DNA from: a virus
Virus genome (UHGV): UHGV-1372970
DNA length: 64,000 bases
Direction: 5' to 3' (one strand)
The notes below the pieces were generated by a model, which worked only from the letters and a program-made list of their open reading frames with translations, was not told the origin of the DNA and searched no databases. Positions 1 to 38,032 of the stretch are shown one piece after another (within the stretch, counting starts at the first letter, position 1; each line of letters opens with the position of its first letter). The translations under genes were made by a program, and so were the position numbers.

Positions 1-3000
1 ACTTGGTCACAGCAGCGCCCTGGGATGTGATATCAGTACCGTTCTTTTCAACGGTAGAGTTCAGTGTCTGAATCGCAGACGCGTTGGCGTCGGACAGCTC
101 CTGAGTATTGTAGGCGTCGGTCACTTCCGTGAGCACAATGTTGTCAATCAGGAACGAATCACCGGCTTTAACCGTTGATACGTTCGGCACTGAAATTCGA
201 GCCATAGCCTGCTTTACGCCGCTCTTGGTCAGCTTAAGATAGCCAGAGACTTTAGTCCATGATGTCGCGGAAAGGTCTTTTACTGCCTTTGTCAGCGATG
301 GCCATTGCCAGGAGTCATCCTGATACTGAACAGACAGACCGACAGTGATTTGGGTGTTCGCGGCCATATTCGCTTTATTCGCGTCAAGCTTCACCCAATA
401 TTCGAGATAGAAGACTGCATTATCTCTGACCTGGAAACTGCCGAAGATATGGTTGTCGCTGTTATCTGTAGAATTAGGGTTGTAGTCATTCGGGCGAGTA
501 ACTCGAATGCACTTGCCACCACCCTGCGCGTCATCCGTGGTGACGATTACGCGGTTGTTCGACAGATTATAGCCATTGCTATAACTCTCAAATGTCCCAT
601 CAGGCAAAATGTTGGCGCCACGCTTTGACTGCTGATTCAGAGAGCTATTGAGAGATGTAATCGCGTCACTATTGCTTGAGACCCCATTCTCCGTATTGGT
701 CACGCGAGTGGTCAGCCCATTAAGCGCCGTCGTGTCCGCTTTCTTAGCAACGTCGCCTTTGACGGTATTGACAGTATTATTCAGGGTTGTGAGTGAACTA
801 CCCTGGCTGGTCAGCGTCTTGCCCTGCTCTACGACCGTATTCTGCAACGTCTGCAACGCAGAAGCGTCTGCCTTCTTCGACACGTCGGTCTTCGTAGACG
901 TCAGGTCGTTCTGTAGCTTAGTGATCGACGTTCCCTGAGAACTAATCGTGTCACCTTGCTTGGTCACTTTCGTGGACAGATCGCTCAACGCGCTGGCCGT
1001 CGCATCATTATTGACTGCGTCAGTAATATCGAACACTTGGAATGAATCGATCCAGATTTCCGCATTACTTGGATGGCAGTAGATGCCAAAGGCCTGGCCA
1101 TCCGCACCAGTGCTCGGGGAGAAGGGTGTATCCCATGTGATAGTCTGCCAGTCGCTCGTCAGCGTGACGTTTTTATCTTCGTAATTACCCTCGACAGACC
1201 CGTTAAAGTTCCAGCGGCGCAGAAGCATGTTCATCGAGCCTGAAACACCCTTGGCGCGAACGATATAGCGGAATTTGCGAGAACCATTTACCGGGACAGG
1301 TTTTTTACGGTTAGCAAAAAGCCCCGGAGATGTAGAGTTCACTCTGACCATGCGGACGCCGGAGGAATTTTCACCATAGGCGCCAAATTCTACGAGGCTT
1401 CCGGTCGGGACACTGTTCTTCTGAGTGCCAAATGCTGAGCCGTCACCGATGAGATCAGCATCCTGAACCAGATTATCGCCCATGTTCAGCATGGCATTGA
1501 CGTTGTTGTTCAGGCTAGTAATAGAATCGCCGGCTGAACTGATGTCCTTACCCTGCTGTGTAACGGTATTTTGAAGCGATGACAGCGCGGCTGCGTCAGC
1601 CTTCTTAGCTACATTTGCGTCGGTCGTCTTGAGGCTGTTCTCAAGGCTAGTGGCACGGCTACCAACACTGGTCAGATCCTTGCCTTGCTGGGTTACGGTA
1701 TTCTGCAGCGATGATAAAGCTGTGGCATCCGCTTTCTTTGCAACGTTGGCATTGGTGGTGCTCAGGTTGTTCTGCAGGCTTGTAATGCTGCTTGAGGCTG
1801 AAGCAATGTCTTTGCCCTGCTGGGTAACCGTATTTTGCAGTGTCTGGAGAGCTGCGGCGTCCGCTTTTTTCGCGACGTTCGCGTTGGTCGTGTCCAGATT
1901 GTTTTTCAGATCCGTAATGCTGGTGGACTGCGACGCAATGTCTTTACCCTGCTGGGTTACGGTATTCTGAATAGATGACAACGCAGATGCATTGGCGTCG
2001 ATATTGACGCTATCTGTCACATCGATGACATAGAAATCATCAAAGTAGCGGTTTCCTGCCGTCAGATAGTTGTTAAGCGTCACCGGCAAACTAGCCGTCT
2101 CGGTCGCCTTCCAGCGTCGGCTGAATTTAGTCCAGTCACCGGATACGCCGGTAAATGGCAACTCGAACACCGGATTGCCGGCGCTGCTGCCTACACGGAG
2201 TTTGTTATTTCCACTGCCATTATCCGTCGTGCCTGAAATCTGCTTAACCCATACCCCGATCTCATAAGTGCGGTCTTTGACGAAATCAATATTCTGACCC
2301 GGCGCGATGCTGCCCGGATCGATCTTCAATGCGCGAGTACCAGTATGCGGGGATTGAACCTCAACAACCGTGCTCTTAGAGCCAACGCCGATATACCCAT
2401 CAAATCCACGCTCAAAAGATGGGTTTACAATAAGGTTGTTTGGAGTCTTCGCAGAAGCATCAGAATCGGCAATTGCGTTACTCAGTGAGTTATTCAGCTG
2501 GACGATGCTGTCTGCCTGACTGGACACCTTGCCCTCGGTTGCGCTAACACGAGATGTCAGATCATTGACCGCCGTCGCGTCGGCTTTCTTCGCAACATTG
2601 CTGTTTGTCGTATCAAGAGACGTTTTGAGGTTAGTGATACTGCTATTCGCGGCGGAAATATCTTTACCCTGTTGCGTCACTGTTCCCTGCAGTGCGGTCA
2701 GCGCTGTCTGGTCGGCCTTTTTACCAACATTGGCGTTGGTGGTGCTCAGGTCATTTTGCAGTTTGGTGATCGACTGACCCTGGGTGGATATATTCGAACC
2801 CTGTTGATCCACTGACGTCTTCAGAGTCTGCAATGCAGAAGCGTCAGCTTTACCCTTCAGCGAAGATTTAAGACCAGTGATATCCGACGCCATCGCGCTG
2901 TCCTGAGTGTTCAGGGTGTCGAGCGACTTGTTGATGTTGGAAACGCTGTCGTTAACTTTCGTTTCAAGAGACTGACGGGCCGCTGCTTCTGCTTTATCAG

Positions 3001-22566: not shown

Positions 22567-23823
22567 TTATCTCGATCCACCAAGAATAACACGAGTCTTG
22601 ACCGGGAATCGACGATGAATTGGATAACCCAGGGCATCGGCGCTGTGCTCGACGTTTCCAGTTTTATCAATGTCACGGCCACCTGGCTTATAAACCACCT
22701 TCTCCAGTGAATCGATCAGATGCTTACATTTCGGGTCGATGTACATGCGCACGTCGCCTGAAGCGGTCAGTAGCAGTCGGTTTACTGCGTTCACACGGTC
22801 AGCGATCGGCGGGTGCTTCTTCGGATGGTCAATTCGCATAAACCCCTTCTCCTTGAAGATGTCCACATCCGATTCACCTCGCGCGTGCTGTCGGTATGCA
22901 CCAGCGGGGTCAGGGAAAACTGTCACCTGGCTTTTCTGGCGCCAATACCGTCTCTCCAACTCATCACACACTTCTGACGTGTTGGAAGAGAACAGGACAA
23001 CCTCATCAATCGCCCAAACTTCGCCGTTAGGCTGCGGCTGCAGGATCACCGATGACATTGGGTCGATGTTGAAGTCCTGCCCCACCCAGATAGGTAAGCG
23101 TGGATTGAATTGCAGAGGCTTTACATGCACACCACGTTCAAACGGGTAATACACACGACCGGACATATTTTCGAACGAAGCAAGATACTCCTGCGCGAAC
23201 GATTTAGGGTCCATGTCGTTTTTGGCCGCTTCGATCTCGCTATCTGGGACGAATGGAGAATCTGCCGTCACAAACTGCCAGCTCTTCCACAACCCTTTTG
23301 CTTGCATCTCTGGGTTCTGGCCGATCATGAATAGCTTATGGAACTCTGAGAAGCCCTTTGGCGTACCGATGATCAGCGCACCACCGCGGGTAGACGACAG
23401 CGTCGGTCGAAGCACCTTGTACCAGGTGTCCGGCTTCATATCCTGAAACTCATCCAGTACGACAAAGTTCAGAGCAACACCACGAAGCGTATCCGGCTTA
23501 TCCGCCCCTTTTAGCGCGATCTCACTGCCGTTCTTCAGGATGATTGTCATCGTGGTATCGTTTTTCTTCGCGATCCACTTACGAGGCAATACTTCCTGAA
23601 GGTCATCCCACAGAATTTGTCGTGCCATCTGATACGTTGGTGCGATGTACCAGACACGCTGTTTGCGGTCAGCTGCGGCCGCTTTGATGATTTTAGAAAT
23701 CGACAGTCGTGACTTGCCCCAGCGTCGACCGGCGCACACCACCTTGAAGCGGTGCGGTGACTTGAAGACCCTCATCTGCCCCGAATGCAACTGAACCAAG
23801 CTCAGGGAGGATGGCATAGCCAT
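22567..23823 (-). CDS. Terminase large subunit.
   Basis: 418 aa. Walker A motif GRRWGKS and Walker B motif VVLDE. C-terminal nuclease domain. Confidence 0.9.
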   Translation of the reverse strand: MAMPSSLSLVQLHSGQMRVFKSPHRFKVVCAGRRWGKSRLSISKIIKAAAADRKQRVWYIAPTYQMARQILWDDLQEVLPRKWIAKKNDTTMTIILKNGSEIALKGADKPDTLRGVALNFVVLDEFQDMKPDTWYKVLRPTLSSTRGGALIIGTPKGFSEFHKLFMIGQNPEMQAKGLWKSWQFVTADSPFVPDSEIEAAKNDMDPKSFAQEYLASFENMSGRVYYPFERGVHVKPLQFNPRLPIWVGQDFNIDPMSSVILQPQPNGEVWAIDEVVLFSSNTSEVCDELERRYWRQKSQVTVFPDPAGAYRQHARGESDVDIFKEKGFMRIDHPKKHPPIADRVNAVNRLLLTASGDVRMYIDPKCKHLIDSLEKVVYKPGGRDIDKTGNVEHSADALGYPIHRRFPVKTRVILGGSR

Positions 23824-24413: not shown

Positions 24414-24582
24414 AGTTCCCTCTAATTCCGCTCGGCATCTTCCTGACGCCTTAAAACAAATTGTTTTCTGGTGGTAGTTGTTTACTAAGCAACCAAAAAA
24501 CTAAAAAAACAGAGCCGTGCTCTGGATATTTATATATCTGGCAGTTCTTCTTTTAAAAACATACAGAATCAGGCTCTTTCAA

Positions 24583-24849
24583 CTACACCAGCAGCATTTT
24601 TGCTTTTGCTCTGCCCAAGATAGTCAGCCCCAGCGTCCGACGATGATGCAGCGTTTCGCCCCGCGGCCGACAGTCGTGCTTTTCAACCAGTCCCTTTTTG
24701 ATGAGCGCACGTAGAGAAAACTGCATACTCTGCTTGGAGGTTCGGTATGGCAGGATCTCCAGCAACTCATCCAGATCGAGAAGATGCCCACGCTCATAAC
24801 CGAGACTGATTGTTTTGATGATGTCTTTTTGCTTTGATGTCAGGTTCAT
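24583..24849 (-). CDS. Small winged-helix DNA-binding protein.
   Basis: 88 aa. MarR/wHTH-like segment. Confidence 0.4.
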   Translation of the reverse strand: MNLTSKQKDIIKTISLGYERGHLLDLDELLEILPYRTSKQSMQFSLRALIKKGLVEKHDCRPRGETLHHRRTLGLTILGRAKAKMLLV

Positions 24850-31569: not shown

Positions 31570-32214
31570 ATGTCACAGATTAAAAAAATCGACGTTCTGA
31601 ATGCTGCAATCATTGTATCAAAAGAATTGAGCGCAAACGCTGAAGCAATGGCTATCAAGTTTAACGAGCGTCTGAACGCTGGCATGGATACCAAAAAGGA
31701 CAAAGCGGATCTCCGTGCAGCACAGACCAAAAGCGCTTACTTTGACAATAACATCCTTTCAGCGATGAATGATGACAAACAGTGTGGCGTTTTCTACTTC
31801 TCTATTAAGATTGCTAAGAAAGATCCAGAGTTGTTTTTCCGCGAAACATTAGCGAATAGCTATGCACTCGAAAAGCTGGCGTATCTCATGTCCTCAATGG
31901 CTTCTGGTAAATGTGTGTTTAATAGTTCGCTTTCTACTAACTCTCGCGTTTTTGCAATGGTCGAGATTATCAAGAAAGATCCGACCACGTTTAGCAATGG
32001 GGAAGTATTTAAGTTAATGAATAAAGCTAAACAAGATAACGAGATGAAACCAGATGCGACATATACTCAAGCAAATCAGTTAATCAAATTGTTCCGTGAT
32101 CTGGGGATCGTAGAAGCAATCAAAGATGGCGGAAAATCTGAATTTGGAATGGCAAAATTTAAATTTATTAAAAATGATTTGTTTAATCATATAGCTACCA
32201 GCTTCAGCAAGTAA
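31570..32214 (+). CDS. Hypothetical protein with its own sigma70-like promoter.
   Basis: 214 aa. Upstream TTGCGT-N17-GATAAT at about 31455-31490. Confidence 0.55.
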   Translation: MSQIKKIDVLNAAIIVSKELSANAEAMAIKFNERLNAGMDTKKDKADLRAAQTKSAYFDNNILSAMNDDKQCGVFYFSIKIAKKDPELFFRETLANSYALEKLAYLMSSMASGKCVFNSSLSTNSRVFAMVEIIKKDPTTFSNGEVFKLMNKAKQDNEMKPDATYTQANQLIKLFRDLGIVEAIKDGGKSEFGMAKFKFIKNDLFNHIATSFSK

Positions 32215-32221
32215 CAAGACA

Positions 32222-32352
32222 AGCGCCCACTATGGGCGCTTTTTTGTTTCCGCTATAAAGCCACCAGCGCCCACTATGGGCGCTTTTTGCATTTCCAGTG
32301 ATCCAGACATGCCAGACCAAAGAAAAGCGCCCATAGTGGCGCTATTTTCGTT
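32222..32352 (+). terminator. Three tandem rho-independent terminator hairpins.
   Basis: AGCGCCCA-CTA-TGGGCGCT+T6 at 32222-32247. The same hairpin +T5 at about 32266-32292. A degenerate copy (GCGCC-CATAGT-GGCGC+ATTTT) at about 32327-32350. Confidence 0.8.
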
Positions 32353-35992: not shown

Positions 35993-36211
35993 CTATACAA
36001 TCGACTCAGAAACAGAGCAGTTCCAGGCTAGTTCAAAACTCTCAGTCCCCACAGGCACCCCAAAGGCACCGGAGCAGTGGCCTTTGGCCAACATATCTGA
36101 CACCTTGGTAATAACTTCTGCCGAGCGAATCAAATTGCCTAGCGCCTCATCGTTGCGAAGGGTCATGCTATTGTCAGATAGCGTAATGCTGATATTTAAA
36201 TGCTTGTACAT
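35993..36211 (-). CDS. Hypothetical protein.
   Basis: 72 aa. Extended -10 (TGcAATAAT) and an AUAAGAAAACAA leader. Confidence 0.45.
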   Translation of the reverse strand: MYKHLNISITLSDNSMTLRNDEALGNLIRSAEVITKVSDMLAKGHCSGAFGVPVGTESFELAWNCSVSESIV

Positions 36212-36464
36212 GTGCTTTACTCAGTTGTTTTCTTATGTTGGTTATTATTGCAATAACCAGTAGGCGAAAAAGCACATTTAAAAGAGAAACGCGATAAAAT
36301 GGCCGGACTTAACTCATTGACACCCGTCGTTTTCCTGACAGAATGAATATCGCTGGTGGTATGACCGTATTTATACGAACCTATGCCTGGGTCGCCTCAT
36401 GCCACCAGCCGCCCAACTCCCGCGACCGCTCGGTTGACCTTTCATCAAGCAGCCTCGTCTATAC

Positions 36465-36550
36465 GGCAACCTCCCCGTTTCCCGACCGCAGGCTGTATCT
36501 GGCCGTTCCCCGTTTTGCCGCGGCTAAAGGCGACCGACCCGTTTCCTGGC
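36465..36550. repeat. Iteron array A: three CCCGTTT(C/T)C units at roughly 32-bp spacing.
   Basis: ctCCCCGTTTCCCGACCGC, ttCCCCGTTTTGCCGCGGC, gaCCCGTTTCCTGGCCGT. Confidence 0.6.
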
Positions 36551-36729
36551 CGTAGGGAGTTTGTGCGGCGCCAACGTTTTTGTAGGGCTGGGAAATTACA
36601 GCTTGAATTTATGCGAAGACGGAAGCGCGACTTTTTTTCTGACCCTACTTACACAAACACCTAAACACCCAAACCTCTTCCCTCTATAACGCCTTAATCC
36701 CAATACCCCAGAACTCTCTTAACGCTACC

Positions 36730-36803
36730 TTCCCAAAACGGTAAATGACCTTCCCAAACTGTCCCTTTCCTATTCCCAAACTGTTCTGGGTATCTTCCCA
36801 AAT
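36730..36803. repeat. Iteron array B: four TTCCCAAA units at 21-23-bp spacing.
   Basis: TTCCCAAA at 36730, 36751, 36773 and 36796. Confidence 0.7.
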
Positions 36804-37711
36804 TTCTTCTGACCTTCTCTATGGTGGATGTGTATCTGGGAGTGTTCTTCTCTACGGGATTTCCTTCTATCGCTTCCTATGGTGTGGTTGTTCTTTCTTG
36901 GTGGTTTCCTCTGGGTTGTTCTCTTATCCGGGATTCGTTCTACCTTGTGTAATGGCATATAGGCGAAGAGATTGTTTCGTCGTTTTGTTCTGGGAGATGG
37001 CAGGTAACCGACTGCTTGTTTTCTTGTGCTCTTAAACAAGTTGTTATCTGGGTGAATGTGTCGTTAAGCCTTGTCCTGGCTGCTTTCCGCAATTCTGGGG
37101 ATTTGAGGTTGCATTGCTATTGGGTGATGGCAGGTATGGGATTATCTCTTTATCGTTTCTCTCGTGTGCCTGGGGAACGCTGGATGTGTTTCCGTGACTG
37201 TTGGGGTTTGGCGGGTGCCCCAATGCCTGTGATAAGTCGAGTGGTGTTCTTGGGATTTTTGAGCCTCGCTTCCTTTGGTTGGTGGTATGCCGGTTCCGCT
37301 CTTTCAGTTATGATAGTGGGTTTTGCCTGAATGTATTGTTGGTGGTTCTTCCTCCCGATTTCGAGTTGATTGGCTTATCCTCGTATACGCTCTGTAATGC
37401 TCTCTAAGCAAATCTGATTTGTGGTGATGTGTTGGTGTGGCGTTTCCTGTTTAATCGAAGCCTGGGCGTTCTGGTGTAGTGTCGAGCGGGTATAAGAGTG
37501 GTTATGCTCAAATGTCAAAAAATGAGGGTAAAAATGGGTTTTGGTTTGACGTTACGTTGATCTGCAAACAAGTTGTTTTCTTATGGGTGTTATTGCTTTG
37601 TTTACAGCGGCGTTGCGGGTTGATGAGTGGTTGATTAGGTGGAAAAGTGATGATCAACCTCTCCTTATAGAAACTGCGAGAGGTTGACTGGTTACGTCAG
37701 TGAAAGGTCAA

Positions 37712-37981
37712 TCACTCTTTTGTGTCTGGGTACAGCCTATTTAATTCCTCTCTGACGTTCCCGAAACACTTCTGATCATTTGGTAGAGCTGCATCATCCA
37801 CGTTAGGGTCAGGTTTGAATTTTTCCTTGTACGCTTTATAAGCCTCTTGAACTTTTTGAGAAACTACAGCACCAGGGGCATGGGCGCATACATTCGTTAT
37901 CTGATCAGCGATTGAGCTTTCAGCCGCTGAAGCACTGAAGTTCGCCATAAATGCCAAAACAAGAATGCCTACTTTCTTCAT
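37712..37981 (-). CDS. Small secreted/periplasmic protein.
   Basis: Start reassigned to MKKVGILVLAFMANFSASAAE (signal peptide, TGGAG ribosome-binding site). Confidence 0.6.
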   Translation of the reverse strand: MKKVGILVLAFMANFSASAAESSIADQITNVCAHAPGAVVSQKVQEAYKAYKEKFKPDPNVDDAALPNDQKCFGNVREELNRLYPDTKE

Positions 37982-38032
37982 TACTAACTCCATTAGTGTG
38001 ATTCGAAGTGAGTGCAAATCGTCCCTTCAATG

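Follow-up and report, generated by a model that had tools for sequence, protein, structure and literature searches.

A gene-free block of SSU5-group phage-plasmids is a conserved control region with phased iterons and predicted promoters that face each other

The virus genome UHGV-1372970, of which a stretch of 64,000 nucleotides (the window) was analysed, is a phage-plasmid of the SSU5 group, with non-mobilizable relatives of ~110 kb each. Between an early gene of 72 amino acids (aa; 35993-36211) and a gene of 101 aa (37712-38017) it has a gene-free block (36212-37710), which is a non-coding, cis-acting control region conserved in this group. The block has a conserved architecture, with phased iterons whose spacing is preserved and with conserved promoter-like elements, and it is separate from the RepB replicon. 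From its sequence we infer that it is bound by protein, transcribed and involved in replication: it may be a repressor-controlled, transcription-activated origin of lytic replication or a similar cis-acting protein-loading site, a reading that we place first but hold tentatively.

About 30 plasmids of Klebsiella and Citrobacter align with the block over its whole length with 80-93% identity, and the corresponding block of SSU5, used as query, returned 859 plasmid records (449 Klebsiella, 224 Escherichia, 91 Enterobacter, 49 Salmonella). A nucleotide search of the deposited phage collection found no near match to the block, and a distant search reached the flanking gene only. In the annotated relatives, an interval of ~1.5 kb is empty or holds one short, non-conserved 'hypothetical protein' in every record, and a gap of 1.5-1.9 kb, empty or with dubious open reading frames (ORFs) only, adjoins the homologue of the 72-aa gene in ST13-OXA48phi12.3 and pJN2-26 (Klebsiella phages), in SSU5 and in E. 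coli plasmids: current annotations leave the block blank or fill it with spurious hypothetical ORFs. A preliminary description of this DNA, made from the sequence alone, had proposed a comparison with related phages; the relatives retain a non-coding block at the same position and the iterons are present in them, and we found neither ordinary genes in its place nor a loss of the iterons, both of which would have spoken against a functional element. A full-text literature search found no paper that describes the block.

When the profile of window-type blocks is compared with the Klebsiella-major type, both ends align and the core is unalignable. All types (window, Klebsiella-major, E. coli and SSU5) nevertheless share one layout: a rightward promoter (replaced by an ORF in SSU5) is followed by three to six CC(G/T)TT(T/C)C(C/T) iterons, mostly 22 bp apart, by a G/T-rich stretch of ~700 nt that includes a conserved operator-like palindrome and by a leftward promoter. 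A search for deeper relatives via the DUF4942 protein returned one distant locus from a metagenome-assembled genome, which has no skewed block. An isolated right-hand part of the block (580-760 nt) survives in two further loci: in the K. pneumoniae plasmid pGH27TC_fusion (L019, 7001-7746), a large IncFIB/IncHI1B plasmid of 250 kb, it adjoins IS1 and defence genes, and in a C. freundii plasmid (L013, 3001-3577), a Citrobacter phage-plasmid whose record has a second matching place, it lies beside unrelated genes.

The preliminary description saw no convincing ORF in the block, and we agree: the longest ORF in 36212-37710 has 104 aa and starts with TTG. Open frames differ among close relatives and are broken by indels of 1 nt in the core and of 22 and 34 nt in the repeat arrays. 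Variable alignment columns over 36810-37520 are distributed over the codon phases as 65/60/60, which is no codon-phase bias, and the block has neither a conserved reading frame nor a third-position substitution bias. In-frame (V/E/G)MA(F/G/Y) peptide repeats in a + frame of the relative L003 and of SSU5 were considered as a sign of coding; this was rejected because the very close relative L004 breaks the frame, the window divides it between two frames and the substitutions have no codon phase.

A strong strand skew had been described for the entire interval. This holds for 36800-37500, where the top strand has 68% G+T and 13.8% A, but not for the left part (36430-36800), which is C-rich instead (C 33%, G 19%). 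The strand-asymmetric core (36800-37480; top strand G 29%, T 39%, C 18%, A 14%) contains the 300-nt maximum of G+T of the whole 64 kb (70.7%, z about 5) and also its longest A-free run (46 nt, starting at 36880). The profile is kept in all types, with ~400 C-rich nucleotides followed by 600-700 nt with 5-16% A and G+T near 70%, and persists even in types whose core cannot be aligned to that of the window. Each strand of the block has a C-rich 5' half and a G-rich 3' half, and the asymmetry flips at the iterons; the polarity of this flip is suggestive, being that expected of leading strands that diverge from the iteron centre. Cumulative GC skew over the whole plasmid rises nearly steadily and marks neither the block nor repB as an origin, a course that we attribute to gene orientation.

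Within the core, RWRATGGYR repeats are dispersed (36949, 36994 and 37124 in the window, with five copies in L003 and seven in SSU5) and lie nearly all on the + strand; autocorrelation found no periodicity of 3 nt or 10.5 nt. Two candidate elements were discarded: an antisense 'anti-ribosome-binding-site' role of GTAATGGCG repeats has no matching translation start in the window, and a sequence like rrn boxA (TGCTCTTAAACAA, 37027-37039) is not conserved in close relatives. The second most G/T-rich top-strand stretch of the window (1550-2000) contains several near-identical units of ~115-120 nt (e.g. ...CTTGCCTTGCTGGGTTACGGTATTCTGCAG...), which fall within a very long minus-strand tail-protein gene running off the window start.

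A decayed gene remnant or neutral spacer would explain why the block diverges faster than its neighbours, why scrambled copies of a promoter/leader cassette are present and why block fragments persist as debris beside IS1 in unrelated large plasmids. Decay would, however, erase the low A content (5-14%), which is maintained in four diverged lineages; moreover, the iteron spacing and both promoters are conserved, and the same position is retained in relatives from Klebsiella, Escherichia, Enterobacter and Salmonella. We consider decay very improbable.

The two repeat arrays that had been described are both there. In array A (36465-36565, + strand), CCCGTTT(C/T)(C/G) is found at 36474, 36509 and 36538, the middle copy being CCCGTTTTG, with one further copy in the 64-kb window; in the form that is common to all types, CC(G/T)TT(T/C)C(C/T), the units start at 36475, 36503 and 36539 (spacing 28 and 36). 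Close relatives have a fourth unit, on an insertion of 34 nt. The array A motif is present six times, with identical spacing (22, 31, 22, 22 and 22 bp), in the SSU5 and E. coli types and three times (22, 22) in the Klebsiella-major type: the iteron cores are kept while the spacers diverge, between types that are only ~68% identical. Array B (36727-36803, + strand) consists of four ACCTTCCCAAA-type units and sits where the GC skew changes sign; its repeat TTCCCAAA is found at 36730, 36751, 36773 and 36795 (spacing 21, 22 and 22) and has a single other copy in 64 kb. Relatives have two to four units of array B, the number changing by exact unit indels of 21 or 22 nt. While array A occurs everywhere in the family, array B is confined to the lineage of the window, and its units look like a diverged array A unit (CCTT-CCC-AAA versus CCGTTTCCCTGAAAA); the iteron types of the family are TTCCCAAA versus CCGTTTCCC.

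Total counts of both repeats are unremarkable and it is their clustering that is unusual: neither the complete 111-kb relative pCAV1099-111 nor the rest of the window has a second cluster, and the block arrays are the only phased arrays in both sequences apart from the RepB iterons. Inside the arrays, CC(G/T)TT(T/C)C(C/T) is confined to the top strand. As in known iteron origins, there are at least three direct repeats in one orientation, about two helical turns apart. The fixed orientation and the spacing that is preserved despite spacer drift point to proteins lined up along one side of the double helix, and the use of one strand, the 22-bp register and the copy change by whole units support that the repeats behave as true iterons. 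A linker between the arrays (36570-36645) is also conserved, with 91-93% column identity within the type; it contains GCTTGAATTT and a run of seven T, and its motif (G/C)TTGAAT..TACG is recognisable in the SSU5, E. coli and Klebsiella-major types.

At its left edge the block is bounded by the predicted promoter and the A/C-rich leader of the 72-aa gene (36240-36290, - strand), which align with other leftward early promoters: there is a -10-like AATAAT (ATTATT on the top strand, ~36243-36248), a leader motif CATAAGAAAACAAC and a degenerate operator palindrome (~36269-36284). This cassette sets the left boundary near 36290. The motif TTGTTTTCTTATG..GTTATTAT occurs five times (0 expected) and is conserved in relatives of all types.

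Divergent from the promoter of the 72-aa gene is a predicted rightward promoter, P_R (36317-36344, + strand; TTGACA, 16 nt and the extended -10 TGA-CAGAAT, or TTGACA-16-TGACAGAAT), which is the best sigma-70 match of the region (10/12 with TG) and has a predicted start near 36351. Eleven of 12 non-SSU5 blocks (6/7 window-type, 2/2 Klebsiella-major, 3/3 E. coli-type) have this pattern a single time, in the same relative position. In relatives of the SSU5 type (for SSU5: L015, 4613-4855), P_R and the hairpin that follows it are replaced by SSU5_110, a real-looking acidic ORF of 80 aa that is rightward in the orientation of the window; rightward transcription into the iterons thus seems to be conserved even where the P_R element is not. 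The predicted leftward promoter P_L (37490-37518, - strand) consists of TTGACA (top strand TGTCAA, 37513-37518), 17 nt and TTATAC(CC) (top strand GTATAA, 37490-37495); its start is predicted near 37483 and it is directed into the core. A simple promoter scan did not call P_L because of its weak -10, but the window, E. coli and SSU5 types have both hexamers unchanged despite a divergent 17-nt spacer, and the Klebsiella-major type has TTGACG-17-TTATAT at this place. Both elements have the layout of sigma-70 promoters, with -35 and -10 hexamers 16-18 bp apart that are conserved while the spacer diverges. They face each other ~1.15 kb apart and both point into the block.

The only helix in the block with support from folding is a stem-loop of 58 nt (36352-36409) with which the predicted P_R transcript of the window type would begin; it has an outer stem of 13 bp and a z of -3.6 on the + strand only. 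RNAalifold on nine relatives gives 23 pairs with one compensatory change and several one-sided changes that are compatible with G-U pairing; three G.U pairs would be A.C on the other strand, which favours an RNA of the + strand. At the right boundary, a hairpin with a 10-bp stem (37654-37687; z -2.9, - strand) lies just past the stop of the 101-aa gene and is probably its terminator; it overlaps GATCAAC-N5-CTTATAGAAA, a motif conserved in all types. Elsewhere in the window, two tandem terminator-like hairpins with a T-run (ACAAGCGCCCACTATGGGCGCTTTTT; 32219-32288), 96% identical and 44 bp apart, follow a + strand ORF (31570-32214).

Both arms of the 58-nt stem-loop carry the Chi octamer GCTGGTGG, on the + strand at 36352-36359 and on the - strand at 36402-36409. 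Chi is frequent everywhere in the window: the 64 kb have 25 copies (9 on the + strand and 16 on the - strand) where 1.8 are expected, denser than the one copy per ~4.5 kb of the E. coli chromosome; this density suggests that shielding from RecBCD is under selection in this phage-plasmid. A Chi-based recombination hotspot at the block was rejected because of this general frequency; in addition, with Chi oriented as it is, the strands preserved would be those outside the G/T-rich top strand, so that the skew would go unexplained.

The 13-bp palindrome AAACAAnTTGTTT occurs at 15 sites in the window (~0.9 expected). Thirteen of these lie outside the block, at 24454, 33358, 34768, 35298, 38815, 39108, 41649, 41700, 42705, 45201, 46687, 52382 and 54096, and most of the sites coincide with the -35 element of a leftward early promoter (TTGTTT-19-GATAAT), after which comes an A/C-rich leader containing CATAAGAAAACAA. 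When aligned in leftward direction, a true early-gene cassette consists of the palindrome with its TTGTTT half at -35, 19 nt, GATAAT, the CATAAGAAAACAA leader, a Shine-Dalgarno (SD) sequence and ATG. The two copies in the block, at 37034-37046 (one mismatch) and 37566-37578 (perfect), have no start codon following leftward, in line with the earlier claim that no gene is attached to them. The mid-block copy (AAACAAGTTGTTA) has no -10 at promoter distance on either side, and the L003, E. coli and SSU5 types each have a counterpart to it, perfect or with one mismatch, in the equivalent position. The other copy belongs to an orphan cassette (37566-37600, - strand), in which the perfect palindrome is fused to the promoter/leader-like AATAAC..CATAAGAAAACAAC with no gene downstream. 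Given the cassette shared by the early genes and this orphan cassette, the palindrome is best interpreted as an operator, through which a repressor would govern early promoters at many scattered sites; by analogy, the sites are probably operators of a master repressor, arranged like the scattered C1 operators of P1.

These elements also allow for a different function, which we regard as the main rival and as somewhat less probable than a lytic origin: a pair of converging non-coding transcripts that would gate or insulate the early-left operon in a lysis-lysogeny or timing switch. P_L would produce a long, unstructured A/C-rich leader towards this operon and P_R an antisense RNA with a protective 5' hairpin, Rho would load on the C-rich, G-poor, untranslated 5' halves and the iterons would be binding sites of a regulator. 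This would fit two conserved promoters that face each other at ~1.15 kb, a hairpin whose covariation and G.U pairs favour the + strand RNA and the divergent arrangement of P_R and the promoter of the 72-aa gene, a classic switch layout. Real early genes have A/C-rich leaders with CATAAGAAAACAA and the core resembles an expanded leader; composition rather than sequence is conserved. The composition is also that of rut sites, for which at least 80 nt of untranslated, unstructured RNA with more C than G are expected: C/G is 1.57 over 680 nt for the leftward RNA in the core and 1.75 over 370 nt for the rightward RNA in the left part, which is evidence from composition only and, together with weak leftward folding, makes Rho attenuation plausible. 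A leader of 1.2 kb is, however, unneeded for the 72-aa gene, which has its own promoter, the exact 22-bp phasing indicates proteins on a face of duplex DNA rather than a feature of RNA, and insulation normally takes tens of nucleotides and not 1.1 kb. The converging-transcript model and the lytic-origin model are not mutually exclusive.

A long functional RNA, either structured and ribozyme-like or a sponge for CsrA, Hfq or ribosomes, would account for a large non-coding block with conserved promoters. The preliminary description had suggested a long non-coding RNA with many GGA and AGGAA motifs; in this form the proposal found no support. Rfam 15 covariance models matched nothing between 34000 and 40000 on either strand (E <= 1), and a scan for tRNA and tmRNA found none. 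The 701-nt core folds no better than shuffled sequences (z +0.89 for the + strand, +0.44 for the - strand), sliding-window folding across the core found no excess structure either, and the leftward core RNA is A/C-rich and almost unstructured (-8 to -25 kcal/mol per 150 nt). It has 13 GGA in 681 nt against 9.0 +/- 2.7 expected, so there is no excess of GGA or AGGA once composition is corrected for, and GGA enrichment is also absent in the L003, SSU5 and E. coli types; a CsrA sponge of the CsrB/RsmZ type was rejected, as it would have about one GGA or A(N)GGA per 20 nt. A giant hairpin of the C-rich and G/T-rich halves was rejected too: nested inverted repeats exist, but they fold no better than shuffles. 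In the window type alone, the leftward RNA is mildly enriched in SD-like motifs and depleted of AUG. With the fast sequence turnover of the core and background reads in a related lysogen added to this, we find a functional RNA of either kind improbable.

The related lysogen is that of Cyrano, a phage-plasmid of E. coli LF82, in whose equivalent block two ORFs have been annotated, CYRAN_103 and CYRAN_104; neither rises above background in any of the five RNA-seq conditions of the lysogen (PMC9928086, supplement; strandedness is not stated in this source). Background reads in the lysogen are as expected for an element of the lytic phase, and the block is likely to be transcribed during lytic growth. 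Outside the window region, by far the highest expression of this phage-plasmid is that of CYRAN_43, annotated as a 'hypothetical protein', which lies beside the integrase and reaches ~720-fold over prophage background (PMC9928086); the corresponding area of pCAV1099-111 (68.5-70.1 kb) is sparsely annotated, and CYRAN_43 may act as a non-coding RNA or serve in immunity.

The block is not the origin of the plasmid mode. In the annotated complete relative pCAV1099-111 (NZ_CP011594, 111 kb), which has terminase, portal, capsid and tail genes, the annotated genes for replication and partition include a DnaB-like helicase, a primase, a ligase, an RNase H, a ParA-like ATPase and a RepB-family initiator. 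RepB lies ~30 kb from the block and is flanked on both sides by 12 iterons, ACCGCTGACAGCATA(C/T), that are 21-22 bp apart and have no similarity to the block repeats TTCCCAAA and CCGTTTCC. This replicon, outside the window (repB 89525-90649 of NZ_CP011594; iterons at 23240-23547 and 24667-24772 of our locus L014), has a P1/RepFIB-like layout. The literature on IncpKPHS1 also places iterons next to repA (PMC6735626). A vegetative origin bound by the plasmid Rep, for which the helical spacing of the block iterons could be cited, is therefore already contradicted by this distance and by the unrelated RepB iterons, and we give it hardly any weight.

Alternatively, the iterons could form an array that works like a centromere or otherwise loads protein: a partition protein or one similar to ParB would bind it to segregate or organise the DNA, with the dispersed centromeres of the plasmid-prophage N15 as a model. 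Centromeres of types Ib and II have same-strand repeats about two helical turns apart, similar to those of the block, the close relative has no obvious repeat array beside its ParA-like ATPase gene and two genes of the ParB family are encoded nearby in the relative. But the ParA gene is 46 kb from the block, the ParB/Srx genes belong to the packaging module beside terminase, and the skewed core and the converging promoters are left unexplained. We judge an array of this kind unlikely.

We return to the lytic origin or control region, which is ranked first on three grounds: the phased array on one face of the DNA, the features of an element that responds to derepression and the lack of an annotated initiator besides RepB. 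The genome of pCAV1099-111 encodes a replisome and its annotation has no initiator other than RepB, which leaves the lytic origin still without an assigned place; a lambda-type origin in the gene upstream of the helicase of this relative was rejected, as this gene has no internal repeats. The conserved inward promoters, the operator copies and the silence in lysogeny together suggest an element that is activated on derepression. In the proposed mechanism, replication in the plasmid mode would proceed from RepB and its own iterons elsewhere. A phage protein would bind the 22-bp-phased iterons, array A everywhere and array B as an addition in the lineage of the window. On derepression of the prophage, P_R and P_L would fire into the block, and transcription across it would help to open the DNA or supply primers.

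Several observations weigh against this proposal. No initiator-like gene is adjacent: the neighbouring ORFs have no Pfam match and only PHROGs of unknown function. An AT-rich unwinding element is missing: within the block, 50-nt windows with a GC content <= 0.30 are confined to 36213-36234, where the 72-aa gene has its promoter. There is no DnaA box (TTWTNCACA, <= 1 mismatch) between 35366 and 37501 and no GATC cluster near the iterons; three DnaA-type sites with one mismatch lie at the right edge of the block (37502-37646), while the total in the window is below chance. In one close pair of relatives the block diverges faster than its surroundings (93% identity versus 98% for the surrounding 9.6-kb alignment). 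We know of no characterised origin that has a strand-skewed segment of 700 bp, and transcription in both directions gives RNA that is first C-rich and G-poor, which favours Rho termination over a persistent priming RNA. Of the earlier suggestion, a replication origin or protein-loading site, there remains a non-coding, conserved element with true iterons and inward promoter-like elements; it is not the plasmid origin and it lacks the features of a classical one.

A more specific form of origin would have no AT-rich unwinding element at all and would be primed by transcription from the two converging, repressor-controlled promoters across the phased iterons. Each RNA would be G-rich only past the centre and form an R-loop there, and from the two R-loops leading strands would be primed that run away from the iterons in opposite directions; the keto/amino asymmetry of the strands, kept while the sequence drifts, would encode the polarity. 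We think this form doubtful. It resembles transcription-primed or R-loop origins (ColE1 RNA II, the primary origin of T7, T4 oriF/oriG, mitochondrial LSP/CSB) in having promoters aimed at a non-coding segment, with a strand of RNA-like sense that is G-rich downstream, and the record of a relative lists a gene of the RNase H family. However, the G content of the block (29-33%) is below that of typical R-loop zones, C-rich stretches that favour Rho come first, the promoters are two and converging instead of one, and there is no structured primer RNA.

Other known systems, whose features, like those of R-loop origins, are established knowledge, match the block in part. It shares with iteron origins (P1 oriR/incA, F, R6K, lambda ori) the same-strand repeats of ~22 bp, the change in copy number by whole units and the nature of a non-coding cis element; in contrast to these, it has no adjacent or overlapping gene for Rep or an O-type protein, no AT-rich 13-mers and no DnaA boxes, its repeat core is short (8-12 bp) and a strand-skewed segment of 700 bp is attached. 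In the lytic replicon of P1, the promoter P53, which is controlled by a C1 operator, reads across oriL, and oriL lies inside the coding sequence of repL. Phage-plasmid lifestyle, scattered repressor operators, repressor-controlled transcription into the origin and a separate lytic origin (here proposed) are common to both; but the block encodes no protein and showed no homology to P1, the nucleotide search of the phage collection being negative. Face-to-face switches (pR-pL of coliphages 186 and P2, prgQ/prgX of pCF10) likewise have conserved convergent promoters, in temperate early regions and beside divergent early promoters. Their overlap is 60-220 bp, whereas that of the block is ~1.1 kb and non-coding, and neither transcript of the block encodes a regulator. 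Relative to known iteron-bearing, promoter-flanked cis elements, the block is new in its strand-asymmetric segment, which is conserved in composition, and in missing the usual accessories of an origin.

Phage-plasmids of the SSU5 type, which carry resistance genes, are found very commonly among clinical Klebsiella, E. coli, Enterobacter and Salmonella. That a segment of ~700 bp keeps an extreme strand composition despite sequence drift is unusual and suggests a function that is read from composition and not from sequence. For these elements, the block is the best candidate for the cis-acting site at which replication would switch from the plasmid mode to lytic amplification.

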